Source: a candidate division WOR-3 bacterium (GTDB taxonomy: Bacteria > Hydrothermota > Tepidihabitantia > Tepidihabitantales > CAIPLT01). Taken from it: a stretch of 44,273 bases of DNA. Positions 18,101-31,962 of the stretch are shown one piece after another. Numbering within the stretch: position 1 is the first letter of the stretch; each line of letters begins with the position of its first letter. Under the pieces are notes generated by a model. That model was given only the letters and a program-made list of their open reading frames with translations. It searched no databases and had not been told where the DNA came from. The DNA lies in NCBI GenBank assembly GCA_965649215.1, contig CBFGJZ010000003.1, positions 1-44,273 on the forward strand, given 5' to 3'. The position numbers and the translations under genes were made by a program.

Positions 18101-18735
18101 TGCTGAGTCGTATTGCCATAATTCGCAATAATTGCTTGCGGATAAAAACCGCTACCCACTGGTCTTTTTACAAAACTCACGGGCGCAATAACTGAATCAA
18201 CGCCGACATCACAAATTTCAACCATTTCAGGACCACTGATATCATCCAGCATTAATCGAAAACCATATAATCCTTTATTTACAAAAGCAATATAAATTTC
18301 CTGTCCGTCAAACGTATCAAGCGCAATAACTTTCTCGAGATAGTTAGTATGGGTAAAGCGACTGCGCCACAACAAAGTATTAAATGCATTGATATTATTG
18401 GTACTGTTTGACAACCACACTTCTAAACTTTCAGGATTACCACCACCATTTTTACAATACCAAAACTTAAGCGTATCTGGCCTTTGTGCACTACAAATCA
18501 ATCGTGGTGTAATTAGCCAATCATCATTGCGTAAGACATTACTTTCATAACGCGAAGAAACTGCCGCAGGTTGGGTTCTTGGATTATTTGTATCTCGTTG
18601 CCAGTTCTGATTCCCACCATCATTATTAATAACTTGCCAACCCACTGGTGGAAAAACATTTCTTGTAAAACTCTCATTAAGTGGAGCTGAAAATAAAACA
18701 AACGGGATCAAGAAAGTAGAGCGCAGAAATTTCAT
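15199..18735 (-). CDS. Large secreted multidomain protein (choice-of-anchor-J-like, CARDB/Ig-like, FN3-like and Kelch-like repeats, T9SS-like tail)
   Basis: ESF...FPPVGW..DDWLITP..LDDI N-terminal domain; NPSND and NLLND Ig-like ends; APFWDDL; YNWRVRA and YFWKVRS; six GGxL...YALKGNxTxEFYxY repeats; KIYNQSGQLIK...LPKGVYI tail. Confidence 0.75.
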   Translation of the reverse strand: MKFLRSTFLIPFVLFSAPLNESFTRNVFPPVGWQVINNDGGNQNWQRDTNNPRTQPAAVSSRYESNVLRNDDWLITPRLICSAQRPDTLKFWYCKNGGGNPESLEVWLSNSTNNINAFNTLLWRSRFTHTNYLEKVIALDTFDGQEIYIAFVNKGLYGFRLMLDDISGPEMVEICDVGVDSVIAPVSFVKRPVGSGFYPQAIIANYGNTTQHNIAVICSIVGQMSGLVYQSVKWVDSLVINSQRIISFDLFTPEIAQLCSIKVKIALTNDTNPSNDRKTMISEIVQPAYCGGPDNGFYYWIDSDTTNGPVYNWIDISLSGSPLISGDAWVQGPIPIGFSFNYYGDAKEYFYYSTNGFITFDEISLSYNTNYPIPSNNLPNNVVAPFWDDLYTYQARHQTFGTAPNRYKVVQWKSIVYNQAVLRDTVIFQIILYENGNIVFQYHYCTNYHNLGLGQSATVGIENTLGNSGLQYLYNDNVVGNRLSANRAIRFYRSCHDVMVETIITGYVGLGDSVKPKIVVKNIGTFIESFNSVFYLRNSNQQLIYTDTCAINGLAPSQRCTVLFRDWIANQFGEYPAQTWTALSEDDNLLNDTCHKTIVVTLASPYLLNPANNVITNNCNVLFDWTDVFQASRYNLVVDGSVDTIVNLSQYGPRNFYEGIYNWRVRAGNFNSWGLWSETYTFIIDTSRPMAPNLILPMPNCTLFLSKPNFLWFRVTDAAQYNILIYTSYDTVINQIISDTNFTPQQPLLNGMYFWKVRSCDLAGNWSNYSPPRQFFLQYPTWLQRCGIPELHSNKPVGAGGSLTAVGNDNIFALKGNNTQDFYAYNSDANTWIYLSPIPFRKSDTIVKCRKVKAGGALVYDGVNYIYAIKGNRTKELWAYNILEDSWIKKQPVPSIRGLSCGSSLAYINGAIYCLIGNSSKFEFYKYIIVQDSWVCLSPMPKGQYNMRYRDGSCLAAVSNDKLFALKGSARINEFYEYDILNDSWQIKNSLPYFHPITRKKNGVKSGGAMCAGDNNVIYAVKGGGSNEFWQYQISNDRWCALDTIPRLNKRSVVKGGAALAYLDNKVFLMKGNKTNEFWSYQIENNSNSNKLDLIEYETIKHANNISNALKIVVLNNNFTIVHAGEKYNFGQLLSYKIYNQSGQLIKSIVCQVKDNLWQDELISLPKGVYIILIEQNN

Positions 18736-18741
18736 TCACTA

Positions 18742-18770
18742 ACTATAGGATTGAATCAACCAAATGTCAA
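18742..18770 (-). promoter_or_regulatory. Sigma70 promoter, leaderless configuration
   Basis: TTGACA (18770-18765), 17 bp, TATAGT (18747-18742), 6 nt, ATG at 18735. No SD. Confidence 0.65.
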
Positions 18771-18791
18771 CAATGTATTGTGAAATATTCC

Positions 18792-21668
18792 CTACCGTAA
18801 TATTTTGCTTAATGAGTTAGACCAGATTTTTTCCATTATCTTTAGTTTGAGATTAACTATTAGATTATCTTTGACTCCATATATCTTCATCGTATCTGAT
18901 GAATTAGTTTTACCGATCAATACATGCGGCAAGTTTTTCATGATTGATTCAAATTTTTTCTGATTTTCTTTTGGTATTGAAACTACAAAGCGGCTATTTG
19001 ATTCAGAAAAAAGAAGCATAAGATTTAACGAGGTATCATTCGCAGAATTCATGTTAAATCTTCTTAAAAAGATCTCTGCTCCAATGCGACCCGCAAAACA
19101 CATCTCTGCTAATGCAATTGCTAATCCGCCTTCTGATAAATCATGGCAGGCAGAAACTAAACCTAATTTAATTGCTTTATGTAACGCACGGAAAATCTTA
19201 ATGCTGAGTTTGGGGTCAAAGCCGAGCATCGTATCTTCTGTTGTCATCGAATTCGTTTTACCAAGTAAGTAAATCAATTCATCTGCCTCTTTAAAATCCA
19301 TTGTGATGGTCTTATTTATATCTGAAATGATACTAACTGCTGAGATAAGTAATGTTGACGGAATCGAAATGGTCTCGCCGTTGATTGACTTGTATTCATT
19401 ATATAAACTATCCTTACCTGATATAAATGGTGTCTCGTAAACTTTAGCAATATCATAACACGCTTGGCACGCCCGAACTAACTCTGCTAAAATCTCGGGT
19501 TTTTCTGGATTACCCCAACAAAAATTATCAAGTAAAGCAGTCTTGTCAGGATCGCCGCCAACCGCAACAATATTTCTCAATGCTTCATCAATGGCAGATG
19601 CAGCCATCCAATACGCATCATCTTGATATTGAGGACAGACACCACATGCTACAACTACTGCTTTGTTAGAATCAGTAAGTGGTTTAATCACACAAGCATC
19701 AGACGGACCATTATTTTCTTTGCCGACAAATGGTTTGATACTGGTTTTACCTTGAACTTCAAAATCATATTGTCGGATGATCCATTCTTTGCTAGCAATA
19801 TTATAGTTGCCAAGTAAATCTAAAATATGTTTATTAAAATCACTTTTCTTAAATTGCACCCGCTCTTTTTTTTCTCTCCTCTTGCATTTCACAGATAAGA
19901 CACAACGTGCAGACATCTTTCTTTTAGGTAGGCCACGATGTAAAAATTTCAAATCAATATCGCCAACTTTTTTATCAAAGTATTTTAAAACCAAACGCCC
20001 GCTATTATTTATTTTGCCAATAATACTTGCTTCCACATTATATAATTGGCTTAATTTCAGAAACGCTTTAATTTTGTGTGGCGCGATGAAAAGAATCATT
20101 CTCTCCTGAGCCTCGGATATCCAGATTTCAGTATATGAAAGTCCTGCATACTTTAACGGCACTTTTTCTAAATTAACCACCGCACCATATTTTGCTAGTT
20201 CGCCAATTGCTGACGAAAGTCCACCACCGCCACAATCGGTTGTGGCATGAAAGAGATTTTTATCTCGAGCATCAAGCATTAAATCCGTTACTTTCTTTTC
20301 TTCAATTGGGTTTCCAATTTGGACCGCGCCCGACGACACTTGTTTAGATTCTCCATCTAACTCTAACGAGGCAAAAGTTACGCCGTGAATACCGTCTCGG
20401 CCCGTTCGACCACCAATCAAAACAATCAAATCGCCATTAACAATCTTTTTATGTATTTTATCCTTGGGAATAATTCCTAAAGTGCCACAATAAACCAAAG
20501 GATTTGCAACAAACCTTTCATCAAAAACAACTGCGCCCGATGCGGTTGGAATTCCCATTCGATTACCATAATCACGCACACCTGCGACCACACCTCTAAT
20601 AATCCGCTTGGGTGATAAAACGCCAACGGGGATTTTACTTTTCGCCATATCTGGTGGCGCAAAACAAAAGACATCTGTATTTAAAATTGGTTTGGCGCCA
20701 AGTCCGGTACCTAAACAATCACGAATCACACCACCAATACCAGTTGCAGCACCACCATATGGTTCTAAAGCAGAAGGATGATTATGGGTCTCGACTTTAA
20801 AGGAAATACCATATTGGTCATCAAACTCAATTACCCCCGAGTTATCTTCAAATACTGATAAGCACCATTTCTTATTAAGTTCTTGCGTGACTTTTTTGAT
20901 ATAGGTTTTTAATAACCCTTTGATCACTTGTTTCTTTTCCCCATCATCATAAATAATATCCGCAGAAAATGTTTTGTGTTTGCAATGTTCAGACCAAGTT
21001 TGGGCAAAAGTTTCAAGCTCAATGTCCGTTGGGTTACGACCTAACTTTTTATAATAATTTTGAATTACCAGCATCTCGCTTTCATTTAGAGCCAAAAGCC
21101 GTGCTTGAGAAATTTCTCTTAATTCGGTAGGTGTTTTATCTAAAATCTCAATCTTTTGAATCGGAAACTCACTTCTTTTATGCCAAGCTGGTTCTTGTTG
21201 TAGAATCTTCGGGTCAGTTAAAATTTGCTCTACTAATGGATTATAAAGTAAATTCTCACCAATCTTTTGAATCTCTTGTTTACTTAACTTACCCTGAAAA
21301 ATATACTGCTTGGCAGTTCTCACCCAACAGTCCTTATAACCTAAATCAGCCAAAAGCTGCATCACATTTTCCGCCGCGGGATCCATTACTCCTTGCCGAT
21401 AGATTATTTCAATAGATTGAGGCTTTTGGATTTTATCCCAATCTTTAATATTTACGATACGATAATTTTCAGAGACAGGATCATAGATATAATTTCGAGC
21501 AATCTTTATGATCTCTTTTTCGTTAAGGTCGGTCTTAAGATAATAGATAACATAGATTATCACACCATCGCATTTTTTTATCCCTAAATCTTGAATGCCA
21601 TGGATAATTGTTACCTCTTCGGGATTTAAACCTTTTTTTCTAATCTCAATTCGCCAAATGTTGTTCAT
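18792..21668 (-). CDS. purL: Phosphoribosylformylglycinamidine synthase PurL with N-terminal PurS-like domains
   Basis: QTWSEHCKHK, FKVETHNHPSALEPYGGAATGIGGVIRD, DCGGGGLS, SEAQERM, HDLSEGGL. N-terminus carries YDPVSE, GVMDP and LYNPLVE PurS-like motifs. No glutaminase (PurQ) domain. Confidence 0.95.
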   Translation of the reverse strand: MNNIWRIEIRKKGLNPEEVTIIHGIQDLGIKKCDGVIIYVIYYLKTDLNEKEIIKIARNYIYDPVSENYRIVNIKDWDKIQKPQSIEIIYRQGVMDPAAENVMQLLADLGYKDCWVRTAKQYIFQGKLSKQEIQKIGENLLYNPLVEQILTDPKILQQEPAWHKRSEFPIQKIEILDKTPTELREISQARLLALNESEMLVIQNYYKKLGRNPTDIELETFAQTWSEHCKHKTFSADIIYDDGEKKQVIKGLLKTYIKKVTQELNKKWCLSVFEDNSGVIEFDDQYGISFKVETHNHPSALEPYGGAATGIGGVIRDCLGTGLGAKPILNTDVFCFAPPDMAKSKIPVGVLSPKRIIRGVVAGVRDYGNRMGIPTASGAVVFDERFVANPLVYCGTLGIIPKDKIHKKIVNGDLIVLIGGRTGRDGIHGVTFASLELDGESKQVSSGAVQIGNPIEEKKVTDLMLDARDKNLFHATTDCGGGGLSSAIGELAKYGAVVNLEKVPLKYAGLSYTEIWISEAQERMILFIAPHKIKAFLKLSQLYNVEASIIGKINNSGRLVLKYFDKKVGDIDLKFLHRGLPKRKMSARCVLSVKCKRREKKERVQFKKSDFNKHILDLLGNYNIASKEWIIRQYDFEVQGKTSIKPFVGKENNGPSDACVIKPLTDSNKAVVVACGVCPQYQDDAYWMAASAIDEALRNIVAVGGDPDKTALLDNFCWGNPEKPEILAELVRACQACYDIAKVYETPFISGKDSLYNEYKSINGETISIPSTLLISAVSIISDINKTITMDFKEADELIYLLGKTNSMTTEDTMLGFDPKLSIKIFRALHKAIKLGLVSACHDLSEGGLAIALAEMCFAGRIGAEIFLRRFNMNSANDTSLNLMLLFSESNSRFVVSIPKENQKKFESIMKNLPHVLIGKTNSSDTMKIYGVKDNLIVNLKLKIMEKIWSNSLSKILR

Positions 21669-30385: not shown

Positions 30386-30511
30386 TTCCAGTTTTATAGT
30401 TATATTTTTCTTACATCATTTTCACTCTTTCCCCCAACATTATATCTATATCCTATAGTAAAAATTATTATTATATTGACAACCTTATATTAAAGGTTTA
30501 CCATTTTAGAT

Positions 30512-31930
30512 ATGCGTTTTATTTTCTTGTTAGCGATTTTATGTTCGCTAGGATTTAGTTGGATTGTAATTAGCAACGCTCCTTATGACCAACGCCAGTC
30601 GAGCAGTGCATTTCTAAATAATCAATATCTGGTTGTTTGGTCTGATGCACGAGCGTGGCAGACTTATCAAGCCAATGTAATTTATGGCGCTCGCGTTTCT
30701 GCTTCTGGTCTGGTACTTAATCCCAATGGCTTTTTGATAAATGGTGGTTATCCAGATCGATTATTACCAAAGGTCTGTGCAAGTAGTTCTGATTGGCTAG
30801 TGATTTGGCAAGAAGGTTGCTGATTTACTCGGGATATTAAAGGTGCTCGGGTAGCGCCGAATGGTAATATCATTAATACTTTTATTATTAATAATCAAAT
30901 TGACGACCAGCTTTTTGCCGATATTGCTTTTAATAATCAAAATTATCTCGTCGCCTGGGAAGATCGTCGCGAAGACCCGACTCAAATCTATTACACTCTA
31001 ATTACTCCAACTGGTCAAGTAATAAGTCCAAATGGCAATAAAATCAGTGGTAAAGATCCGTCTGAATACTATCGCACACCTGCGGTGGCTTCTAACCATC
31101 GCGATTATTTAGTAGTCTGGTTTGGCGTTCGGCTCAGTGGCGATGTCGTTTTAGCATCACGAGTTGATAATGATGGTGTAATTATTGATAGCGTTCCTTT
31201 TGAAATATCAACTGACACAGTATTGCTGAATCAACTTGCGGTAAGCTCGGATGGAGAAAATTATTTAGTAGTTTGGACTACGCAAACTCCTGACACAATT
31301 GGCTTAGATTTAGTTTTCAAACGAATTGCCATCGATGGCTCAATCCTTGATACAATACCACATTTAATTGCTCGTAATCATAATGGAATCTATAAACCTG
31401 CAATAAGTTTTAGCGGTGGCTGTTATTTAGTAGTTTGGAATCAAGAAGATAATATTTTTGGTTGTCGTATCTTACCAGATGGCACAGTCCTTGATTCCAA
31501 TGGTTTTAGTATTTGTGTTGATACATTTCAGCAACTTGAACCCGCCATATCAAGTGATGGCCATCGTTTCTTTGTAACTTGGACCGACAACCGTAACGAT
31601 AATTATGACATTTATGGTGTATTTGTTGATAGTTTAGCCAATGTTAGCATTATTGAAAATATCTCATCGCTTACAAATAATCATTTCAATGTTAATATTT
31701 CCCCAAATCCATTTACCAGTAAAATAAATATTAAAAACAATTCAGAAATTAACTTTCTCAAAATATATGATATTTCTGGGAAATTAGTTAAATCATTTAC
31801 TAACGCATCTACACAAATAATCTGGGATGGGGAAAACAATCAAGGACAGATTGTACCTAATGGCGTATATTTATTAGAATTACAAAGCAATAATAACAAA
31901 ATCACTCGTCGAGTAATAAAATTAAAATAA
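30512..31930 (+). CDS. Secreted 7-repeat beta-propeller-like protein with T9SS/FlgD-like tail and an in-frame TGA at codon 104 (candidate selenoprotein, or nonsense pseudogene)
   Basis: ORFs 30512-30823 and 31085-31930 are in one frame, separated only by TGA 30821-30823. The intervening 87 codons continue the YLVxW...IYGARV..xG repeats. Signal peptide at the start; PNPF...IYDISGKLVK..WDG..GVY..KLK at the end. Confidence 0.85.
30842..30858 (+). promoter_or_regulatory. Candidate bacterial SECIS hairpin
   Basis: GGTGCT-CGGGT-AGCGCC stem-loop (one G-U pair). The loop starts 25 nt after the TGA and has G in its second position. Confidence 0.4.
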
Positions 31931-31931
31931 A

Positions 31932-31962
31932 AAGGCGAAGCAATTATGAGTCGCTTCGCCTT
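31932..31962. terminator. Intrinsic terminator between convergent genes
   Basis: AAGGCGAAGC...GCTTCGCCTT perfect 10-bp inverted repeat. The preceding A-run forms a U-tract for the minus-strand gene. Confidence 0.75.

Follow-up and report, generated by a model that had tools for sequence, protein, structure and literature searches.

The DNA between positions 30512 and 31930 of the window (the whole stretch of 44,273 nucleotides that was analysed) very probably constitutes a single gene for a secreted selenoprotein, in which the TGA at 30821-30823 most likely encodes selenocysteine (Sec). Under translation table 11 the locus is listed as two ORFs, 30512-30823 and 31085-31930. As the sequence-only reading had proposed, the two belong to one 472-codon frame interrupted by that TGA, codon 104 (context W-Q-E-G-C-TGA-F-T-R-D), which is the sole stop inside it; the frame shows no further lesion, as that reading had also held, and the stretch of 262 nt from the TGA to the listed GTG start remains open in frame and is conserved as protein. 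The promoter announced upstream is present as a consensus match, although such matches occur in the region at close to their chance number (15, against 10.5 +/- 3.2 expected from shuffles). The hairpin that follows the stop codon is likely a terminator common to the gene and the convergent gene. Across the 14 orthologous loci no common neighbour gene was found beyond close relatives, and the one RNA run compared with the locus gave 0 contigs. The coordinates of all these features are collected in Table 1.

Table 1. Features of the candidate selenoprotein locus, in coordinates of the window
Feature	Position	Strand	Description
Promoter-like site	30476..30504	+	TTGACA-17 nt-TACCAT, ends 8 nt before the ATG; 10/12 consensus positions
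Whole CDS	30512..31930	+	472 codons plus TAA stop, single in-frame TGA; orthologues align full length across the TGA
Putative N-terminal signal peptide	30512..30580	+	approximately residues 1-23, cleavage site guessed; hydrophobic N-terminus in the sequence
Predicted seven-bladed beta-propeller	30584..31636	+	approximately residues 25-375; AlphaFold2 and Foldseek
TGA, codon 104, read as selenocysteine	30821..30823	+	preceded by Gly-Cys; in blade 2, loop from its 2nd to its 3rd strand; same column in 14/14 orthologues
SECIS-like hairpin	30842..30858	+	6-bp stem, 5-nt loop CGGGU; distance from the UGA to the loop start 24 nt
Type IX secretion C-terminal sorting domain (type A)	31697..31921	+	residues 396-470; PF18962, TIGR04183
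12-bp hairpin	31932..31962		directly 3' of the stop codon; minus-strand listing shows a T-rich tail

That the TGA is a coding position is supported by its conservation. A search of the 66 genomes of the order returned 34 matches at E<=1e-45. Exactly one TGA was present in every one of the 13 matches with E<=4.4e-79, and the 21 weaker matches are paralogues, none of which carries it (0/21). When the search was extended to 272 genomes of the phylum, 14 matches were obtained at E<=1e-60, again each with one TGA (14/14). It had been suggested that homologues be inspected for TGA or Cys at codon 104, and the answer was TGA throughout: the column is identical in all 14 orthologues, being preceded by Gly-Cys in 13 of them and by Gly-Ser in one, and followed by Phe, Gly or Asp. 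These proteins are 33-58% identical and their host genomes range from AT-rich to GC-rich, and the residues flanking the TGA form the best conserved stretch of the protein. The early description of the TGA as lying in a variable loop of repeat 2 was therefore right about the blade 2 loop and wrong about its being variable. An in-frame TGA was also found in 16 metagenome contigs, chosen by a pattern that itself included the TGA. Because the same TGA recurs in independent assemblies, we accepted the codon as real in place of raw-read evidence.

Downstream of the TGA lies the hairpin that the sequence-only reading had pointed out, composed of the arms GGTGCT (30842-30847) and AGCGCC (30853-30858) and the loop CGGGT (30848-30852); its distance from the UGA, given there as 25 nt, is one nucleotide shorter. 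The RNAalifold consensus of the orthologues is this same hairpin, with a 6-bp stem and a CGKGU loop. In the alignment 77 of 78 cells are paired, and three of the six pairs (pairs 3, 5 and 6) covary among CG, UA and UG, some of this covariation falling at wobble positions that track the G+C content of the genome. When the partners were slid by 1-3 columns, pairing was seen in 32-81% of the cells. Only 1 of 500 shuffles reached the observed hairpin score, a test which overstates the support because the sequences are related. The peptide motif G[AV]R[VI][ASTD]P provided another control: all six pairs were present in 10 of 11 distinct Sec-linked copies and in none of the 84 copies without a TGA (control blades). 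Finally, a metagenome scan using a pattern that left the hairpin out gave 23 matches, of which 16 were true orthologues and 7 chance matches. The hairpin was present in all 16 orthologues (6/6 pairs in 14, 5/6 in two), and the chance matches had 0-4 of its pairs.

Bacterial SECIS elements (bSECIS) are expected to have a loop of 3-9 nt, a stem of 4-16 bp, a G in the first two loop positions, a distance of 16-37 nt from the UGA and an MFE (minimum free energy) no higher than -7.5 kcal/mol (PMC13188914, Fig. 2 legend). The hairpin agrees with this description in its 5-nt loop, its 6-bp stem, its spacing of 24 nt and the G that forms the second loop base, which is followed by G or U. Across the 14 orthologues the MFE of the 45-nt region runs from -9.8 to -24.3 kcal/mol; that of the hairpin alone runs from -6.8 to -10.9 kcal/mol, with three of the 14 copies (-7.0, -6.8 and -7.3) weaker than -7.5. 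In 6 of the 14, folding of the single sequence favours another, longer stem (nt 5-13 paired with 26-34), which is built on a CCCGGG palindrome. This alternative was rejected, being lost in the G+C-rich orthologues and not chosen by RNAalifold. Four other candidate Sec codons in the genome are likewise followed by hairpins whose small loops contain G. The comparison that had been proposed, with the SECIS model and with the SECIS elements of the known selenoprotein genes of the genome, thus came out in favour of the hairpin, which fits the bacterial model and resembles the hairpins behind the other Sec codons, including that of selD. The hairpin filter used to look for further selenoprotein genes was crude; it kept 22 of 356 candidates, which do not amount to a complete selenoproteome.

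The genome encodes the machinery that decoding of this kind would require. The sequence-only reading had asked for selA, selB, selC and selD, and all four were found: selA, selB and selD, the last of which carries a TGA (Sec) of its own, and a tRNA-Sec scoring 77.5 bits, which ARAGORN reports as SeC with anticodon tca. More widely within the order, 61 of 66 genomes have selA. Among the 14 TGA carriers, 11 have selA, which was looked for in all but G088, and two more have tRNA-Sec and selB; in the carrier G008 neither selA nor tRNA-Sec nor a selB passing the cut-off was found. TGA terminates 140 of the 840 ORFs of at least 250 aa in the genome, indicating that it is still an ordinary stop, and it is the orthologues' own stop codon in 4 of the 13 aligned. 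Both counts led us to reject a genome-wide reassignment of TGA.

An alternative is that the UGA is passed without Sec, either by near-cognate readthrough (inserting Trp, Cys or Arg) or by regulated termination that would yield both a 103-residue and a full-length product, the hairpin acting as a readthrough stimulator or pause site. We consider this unlikely. In its favour, a conserved TGA with a hairpin behind it is also what a programmed readthrough signal would look like, the searches for Cys-form relatives gave none, and G008 carries the TGA with no detectable Sec machinery. However, the assembly of G008 is only 76% complete, and the machinery is otherwise full in the lineage and in the genome itself. 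Moreover, the hairpin has the features of a SelB-type bSECIS and looks like those of selD and the other Sec codons, the Cys that precedes the TGA in 13 of 14 orthologues is a typical selenoprotein context, and a product of 103 residues would break off halfway through blade 2, unable to fold as a propeller.

The search for a Cys form was made in several ways. None was recovered among orthologues in the full-length protein search; the region spanning the Sec site gave 19 candidates, none at E<=0.001; and a scan of the genome collection with a Cys-Cys pattern found none among the 79 retained loci. A weak case is P0078, a distant protein whose enlarged loop contains Cys-Cys. That no Cys-form orthologue was found is unusual, because nearly all selenoproteins are stated to have one (PMC13188914). 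In the paralogous propellers, which were present in all 41 relatives searched, the Sec column, part of a D-x-R-x-G loop, is occupied by Gly, Ser or Asn; Cys occurs there in only 5 of 261 aligned blades, one of the five being the query's own row. A profile search of 1.84 billion representatives gave 174,033 proteins at E<=0.001, dominated by long multi-propeller paralogues from which the orthologues were not separable.

The predicted structure of the protein runs straight across the TGA. The AlphaFold2 model (mean pLDDT 85.2, pTM 0.76) has 7 x 4 strands, so that the seven repeats which the sequence-only reading had seen spanning the TGA are borne out as seven four-stranded blades. Foldseek matched the model to solved propellers, with CylK (7ron) at E 7e-10 and TMq 0.58, and with TolB, prolyl oligopeptidase and RACK1-type propellers at E<=1e-7. 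In the model, codon 104 falls between two strands of blade 2 (95-101 and 108-114), that is, in the B-C loop. By convention the B-C loops of propellers are on the 'top' face, the site of ligand binding, and the strand order suggests that the Sec-bearing loop would lie on this face. At the N-terminus, residues 2-13 are modelled as a helix with low pLDDT, and a similar hydrophobic stretch begins all 13 aligned orthologues. The secretion tail that had been recognised downstream was confirmed by Pfam PF18962 (Por_Secre_tail; 37.3 bits, cut-off 27) and TIGR04183 (43.3 bits, cut-off 23), and the modelled C-terminal domain is an Ig-like sandwich with a structural match to PorZ. As for the corresponding export system, the genome encodes the SprA translocon (summed 427 bits, cut-off 200) and a full-length PorU-like sortase (409 bits, just below the cut-off of 420).

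These data also bear on the possibility that the locus consists of two separate genes, one for a small secreted protein of 103 residues and one for a protein of 281-368 residues that starts downstream. This matches the gene-caller annotation here and in relatives. Indeed, the best 11 non-self database matches are 348-375 aa long and cover 72-77% of the query, nine of them starting at the hairpin-encoded residues or immediately behind them and two further downstream, and all four non-self N-terminal fragments (103-107 aa) end in ..GC. The suspicion that homologues would be annotated as split at 'EGC' was accordingly well founded. Nevertheless, we regard two genes as very improbable, since a signal peptide is lacking from the downstream piece, whose predicted starts vary among relatives, the TGA halves a blade in a seven-bladed propeller that is modelled with confidence, and the stretch between the TGA and the GTG start is in frame and protein-conserved.

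Least probable is a pseudogene, with the TGA a nonsense mutation or an assembly error: although a single genome could not dispose of this and the public short contigs from hot springs metagenome runs, with no differing letter at 30821-30823 in 40 of 78 rows, include no listed piece that visibly bridges the site, the TGG>TGA change once entertained is refuted by the same TGA in 14/14 divergent orthologues from separate assemblies and in the metagenome contigs, with frame and conservation carrying on undamaged on both sides.

We therefore return to the single selenoprotein gene, for which the following scheme can be proposed. The ribosome would decode the UGA as selenocysteine, the hairpin in the mRNA being bound by SelB carrying Sec-tRNA(Sec), which would thereby be positioned at the UGA. 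The 472-residue product would consist of the signal peptide, the seven-bladed propeller and the type IX secretion C-terminal domain; after crossing the inner membrane in an unfolded state, it would be passed on to the translocon of the type IX secretion system (T9SS), to be released or attached to the cell surface. In the B-C loop of blade 2 its selenol would have a Cys as direct neighbour (Gly-Cys-Sec). The Cys-Sec pair would most likely act as a reversible selenenylsulfide or as a binding site for soft metals or metalloids, and if its chemistry is read in this way the propeller would be an extracellular redox module or one that handles chalcogens or metals. The Ser-Sec of one orthologue indicates that the adjacent Cys is not obligatory, which weakens the idea of a Cys-Sec couple.

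A second, unrelated T9SS family also shows the G-C-U context, with an in-frame TGA in 79 of 79 matches (one TGA in 78, two in the other). It occurs in 49 of the 66 genomes of the order, a far wider spread than that of the propeller, and suggests a common function for surface selenols. It is possible, if doubtful, that this uncultured and apparently hot-spring lineage has an extracellular selenoproteome delivered by type IX secretion, in which the propeller would be a Sec-only member lacking any Cys counterpart. Its Gly-Cys-Sec, exposed on a propeller face at the cell surface, could do chemistry for which sulfur is poorly suited, such as the capture or transformation of soft metals, metalloids or polysulfide.

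The majority of the known bacterial selenoproteins are enzymes of the cytoplasm that either have a thioredoxin fold or contain a metal cofactor, and in most cases Cys relatives are plentiful. The protein proposed here would be a secreted beta-propeller in which Cys apparently never replaces Sec; it would extend the catalogue of selenoproteins by a fold and by a cellular location, and would offer a clean case for asking why Sec is retained over Cys. In this lineage, which has been little studied, gene callers systematically split such genes and thereby leave its surface proteome misannotated. Taken with the neighbouring finds, the gene is a pointer to selenium chemistry on the surface of anaerobic cells.

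With respect to described families, the NCBIfam scan (E<=0.01) gave only secretion-domain matches and a sub-threshold match to the propeller repeat TIGR04275 (25 bits, cut-off 85), and the target protein has no match to PF12396. None of the 119 families listed in Table 1 of a 2026 review (PMC13188914) matches it. The literature comparison, which also covered the parts of PMC13326102 and PMC12013277 that bear on the subject, found no description in full texts on selenoproteins with type IX secretion, WOR-3, secreted or beta-propeller selenoproteins, or groundwater; Deng et al. 2026 (Cell Rep), cited by PMC13188914 for novel candidates from groundwater genomes, BSepDB and supplementary tables were outside this scope and could list the family. 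The claim that a secreted Cys-Sec propeller is an unfamiliar class holds insofar as no family matches, and needs to be tempered, as extracytoplasmic selenoproteins are already known (PMC13188914, Table 1). The target is apparently a selenoprotein family so far undescribed.

The GU of the target loop lies about 8 nt farther from the UGA than in fdhF. The two are otherwise alike in their decoding signal, since genes of the E. coli fdhF type (SelB with a SECIS in the coding region; PMC13188914) also have an in-frame UGA followed, 16-37 nt on, by a small hairpin with an early G in its loop. The target shares with SelB-decoded bacterial selenoproteins in general the presence of selA-D in the genome and a Cys near the Sec, but differs from them in being a beta-propeller and not a thioredoxin-fold or metal-cofactor enzyme, and in having no Cys orthologue among those found. 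Its predicted action outside the cytoplasm is shared with the Omp28-related protein (NF045500), the TonB-dependent receptor of the FCYXU type (NF049945) and the DUF1573 protein (PMC13188914, Table 1). It matches none of their models, however, and has another fold and a G-C-U motif in place of UxxC or CxxU. As a separate observation, Omp28_seleno weakly matches two neighbours of selAB in the genome; a T9SS C-terminal domain is present in one of the two.

In thioredoxin reductase the GCUG motif stands at the C-terminal tail of a flavoenzyme, whereas the target motif is internal (codon 104 of 472) in a loop of a secreted propeller, and no flavoenzyme or cofactor domain was found in it. The sequence-only reading had taken the Cys-Sec pair as the redox motif of the mammalian enzyme; it is that, but is not confined to it, occurring also in the bacterial 'CU' selenoproteins SaoC, SaoL, HgcA, MbdU and KCU-star (PMC13188914, Table 1), and many such sites are linked to metals by the same review. 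In all of them a Cys adjoins the Sec and could form a selenenylsulfide or bind soft metals, as in the target, but they have no sequence or domain relationship to it. Related in sequence are the propellers with 'YLVVW...DIYGxRV' repeats of WOR-3, Stahlbacteria, myxobacteria and other groups, often 800-1300 aa long and with DUF3659/PF12396 and FlgD_ig matches. They have the same blade repeat and are often T9SS cargo; unlike them, with no TGA, the target is a single propeller of about 470 aa in which the blade 2 loop has been remodelled.

Translation through the TGA gave a single frame of 472 codons with no other interruption, in agreement with the claim of the sequence-only reading that two listed ORFs are one gene. 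Since the gene is one frame with an in-frame TGA, the table 11 ORF list splits it into two ORFs (30512-30823 and 31085-31930). The TAA stop of the gene is followed by a 12-bp hairpin, and promoter-like hexamers occur right upstream of the ATG at the level expected by chance in an AT-rich region.

Genome searches were translated through stops, which were counted, so that relatives were retrieved regardless of the codon at the putative selenocysteine (Sec) site. Among 41 relatives, the top six matches, self included, carried one TGA each. A search covering the order's 66 genomes returned 34 matches at E<=1e-45: all 13 at E<=4.4e-79, which are orthologues of about 470 residues from three families, had one TGA, and the remaining 21 weaker matches were longer paralogues, none of which had it. 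Phylum-wide (272 genomes, five candidates per genome scored), one TGA was present in 14/14 matches at E<=1e-60, the fourteenth orthologue belonging to a different order of the phylum. Homologues do keep the TGA, in the same column of all 14 extracted genes, preceded by Gly-Cys in 13 and by Gly-Ser in one. The 13 aligned orthologues are 32-58% identical to the window protein, come from AT-rich to GC-rich genomes and are best conserved in the stretch flanking the TGA. An unselected codon would have been lost at such divergence, and the idea that the TGA is a lesion was therefore rejected. TGA is also an ordinary stop codon in these organisms: it ends 4 of the 13 aligned orthologues and 140 of the 840 ORFs of at least 250 aa in G000, the window's own genome, where ORFs of that length take up 74% of the DNA (table 11). 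G015, a relative with an orthologue, has in addition a partial second propeller match with one TGA (G015:C265:389-1108), which may be a second copy or simply a cut contig.

The prediction that relatives would be annotated as split at the TGA was borne out in a 5.8-billion-protein collection. The 11 best non-self matches were 348-375 aa long and covered only 72-77% of the query; nine of these C-terminal fragments begin at or just after the hairpin-encoded residues and two start further downstream. A search for shorter proteins recovered N-terminal fragments from four non-self entries, 103-107 aa long and each ending in Gly-Cys, and for three of them the longest source contig had the same size as that of one C-terminal fragment. 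No uninterrupted orthologue appeared in the full-length search of this collection, nor with residues 70-135 as query (19 candidates, 0 at E<=0.001). Two patterns, one requiring Cys-Cys at the Sec site, were run against 185,579 species genomes, and the 79 loci kept included no Cys-Cys form. Since no route led to an uninterrupted orthologue, the family looks Sec-only so far, judging from these sequences. A distant protein, P0078, has Cys-Cys-Phe within an enlarged loop and is a weak candidate for a Cys counterpart. Propeller paralogues were present in all 41 relatives searched, and a blade-repeat profile matched 174,033 library proteins at E<=0.001, mostly long multi-propeller proteins. Across 261 aligned blades the Sec column, within a D-x-R-x-G loop, holds Gly (69), Ser (43) or Asn (32), with Cys in five, the query's own row among them.

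The sequence-only reading had also pointed to a SECIS-like hairpin after the UGA, and this hairpin was the sole consensus structure that RNAalifold returned for 72 nt around the TGA of 13 orthologues. It has a 6-bp stem (nt 22-27 and 33-38, numbered from the T of TGA as nt 1) and a 5-nt CGKGU loop. Of the paired cells, 77/78 are complementary, three of the six pairs vary on both sides, the covariation score was reached by 1 of 500 shuffles, and sliding the partners by 1-3 columns lowered pairing to 32-81%. Because the encoded peptide (Gly-Ala/Val-Arg-Val-Ala/Thr-Pro) and the G+C content might account for part of this signal, two controls were run. In the extracted loci and the G000 genome, none of 84 distinct copies of the peptide pattern from TGA-less blades formed all six pairs (0/7 for strictly identical peptides), against 10 of 11 distinct Sec-linked copies. 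The second control searched metagenomes with a hairpin-free pattern of the codons that precede the TGA and the four that follow: 16 of the 23 matches were true orthologues, with six pairs in 14 and five in 2, and the seven chance matches had 0-4 pairs; some of these contigs may share organisms with the genome set, so not all are independent.

The hairpin agrees with the bacterial SECIS constraints in the Fig. 2 legend of a review (PMC13188914): a loop of 3-9 nt (here 5), an upper stem of 4-16 bp (here 6), a G in the first two loop positions (here the second, then G/U), a UGA-to-loop spacing of 16-37 nt (here 24) and an MFE of at most -7.5 kcal/mol (here -9.8 to -24.3 for 45 nt). It is short, with -6.8 to -10.9 kcal/mol by itself, and single-sequence MFE favours another, non-conserved stem in 6 of 14 orthologues. 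This longer stem, at window positions 30825-30854, arises around CCCGGG-type palindromes that let post-UGA nucleotides base-pair with the hairpin's 5' half, and it may compete with the hairpin or be due to chance. Similar hairpins, with small G-holding loops and starting at a comparable distance past the UGA, follow, in G000, the UGA of selD and three other candidate Sec codons.

The Sec genes looked for were all found in G000 (1.64 Mb, 95% complete): tRNA-Sec (selC; 77.5 bits, called SeC with anticodon tca by ARAGORN), the adjoining selA and selB, and selD, itself with an in-frame TGA. As selA is present in 61/66 genomes of the order, Sec use is the rule in the lineage. It occurs in 11 of the 14 propeller-gene carriers; G065 and G088 have tRNA-Sec and selB above cut-off, and selA, selB and tRNA-Sec were looked for and not found in G008 (76% complete).

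Features of the propeller gene and of other candidate Sec genes (G000, the window's genome; C3, the window's contig; C37, another G000 contig; G032 and G046, relatives)
Feature	Location	Strand	Basis or remarks
Coding frame with in-frame TGA	30512-31930	+	translation
In-frame TGA, codon 104	30821-30823	+	translation and orthologue alignment
SECIS-like hairpin	nt 22-38 from TGA	+	RNAalifold consensus, 13 orthologues
selD selenoprotein gene	G000:C3:101165-102073 (outside window)		in-frame TGA in usual N-terminal loop, then small hairpin, AGUU loop
Selenium-island gene 1	G000:C37		349-aa UxxC protein, T9SS tail
Selenium-island gene 2	G000:C37:2040-3965	-	642-aa protein, G-C-U-S-G-H-C, T9SS tail
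Selenium-island gene 3	G000:C37		236-aa lipoprotein-like UxxC protein
Propeller/642-aa-family gene pair	G032:C19:14442-15434 and 18130-19479
Propeller/642-aa-family gene pair	G046:C1:2857607-2858743 and 2870431-2871375

Outside the window, a small 'selenium island' (L077, G000:C37:630-8638) holds selA and selB, the adjoining tRNA-Sec and three further genes. All three begin with a signal-peptide-like sequence and contain a single in-frame TGA with a hairpin behind it. Model NF045500, for the Omp28-related selenoprotein, was matched below threshold by the 349-aa and 236-aa proteins. The 642-aa T9SS (type IX secretion) family (loci L181-L186), with the same Gly-Cys-Sec context as the propeller, is far more widespread: 79/79 matches at E<=1e-40, in 49/66 genomes of the order, have an in-frame TGA (two in one of them), and two TGA and two TAA interrupt one fragmentary copy. 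It has no NCBIfam or Pfam match except the secretion tail. Members lie 3 kb (G032) and 12 kb (G046) from a propeller selenoprotein gene, which may be loose linkage or chance. Public sequencing runs labelled hot springs metagenome, six in all and from three studies, contain parts of window positions 30450-31950, and a diverged strain in one of them has many differences, mostly at third-codon positions.

In the propeller protein, Pfam recognised nothing beyond the C-terminal T9SS sorting domain (residues 396-469; NCBIfam TIGR04183, 43.3 bits vs a cut-off of 23), which dozens of G000 ORFs share. G000 also encodes the SprA translocon (summed score 427 bits, cut-off 200) and a PorU-like sortase of full length (409 bits, cut-off 420). 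An AlphaFold2 model from the 13-sequence alignment, with Sec entered as Cys (mean pLDDT 85.2, pTM 0.76), has seven four-stranded blades, joined by a linker of low confidence to an Ig-like sandwich at the C-terminus. Foldseek matched it to the solved propellers CylK (7ron, E 7e-10, TMq 0.58), TolB, prolyl oligopeptidase and RACK1, and to the T9SS protein PorZ. Codon 104 falls between strands 95-101 and 108-114, the second and third of blade 2 in the model, so a stop there would halve a blade. By convention the B-C loops of propellers lie on the 'top' face, where strand order would place the Sec loop.

The likely decoding mechanism is the known bacterial one, and the propeller selenoprotein family seems undescribed: no NCBIfam selenoprotein model matched the protein, nor does any of the 119 families that PMC13188914 lists in Table 1, and the family was not found in the searched passages of PMC13326102 or PMC12013277. 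It was absent from full-text literature searches; Deng et al. 2026, BSepDB or supplements may list it.

Only one feature is specific to the family, a remodelled loop in blade 2 that carries Gly-Cys-Sec. Side by side, Cys and Sec are able to bind soft metals or to form a selenenylsulfide. The existence of a Ser-Sec orthologue suggests that Sec matters more than Cys, and no neighbouring gene is conserved across the 14 orthologue loci. With modest confidence, we infer that the propeller is a scaffold for a putative extracellular site of redox chemistry or of metal/chalcogen binding. Cys and Sec are likewise adjacent in the bacterial 'CU' selenoproteins of Table 1 in PMC13188914, where several such families are linked to mercury/metal chemistry.
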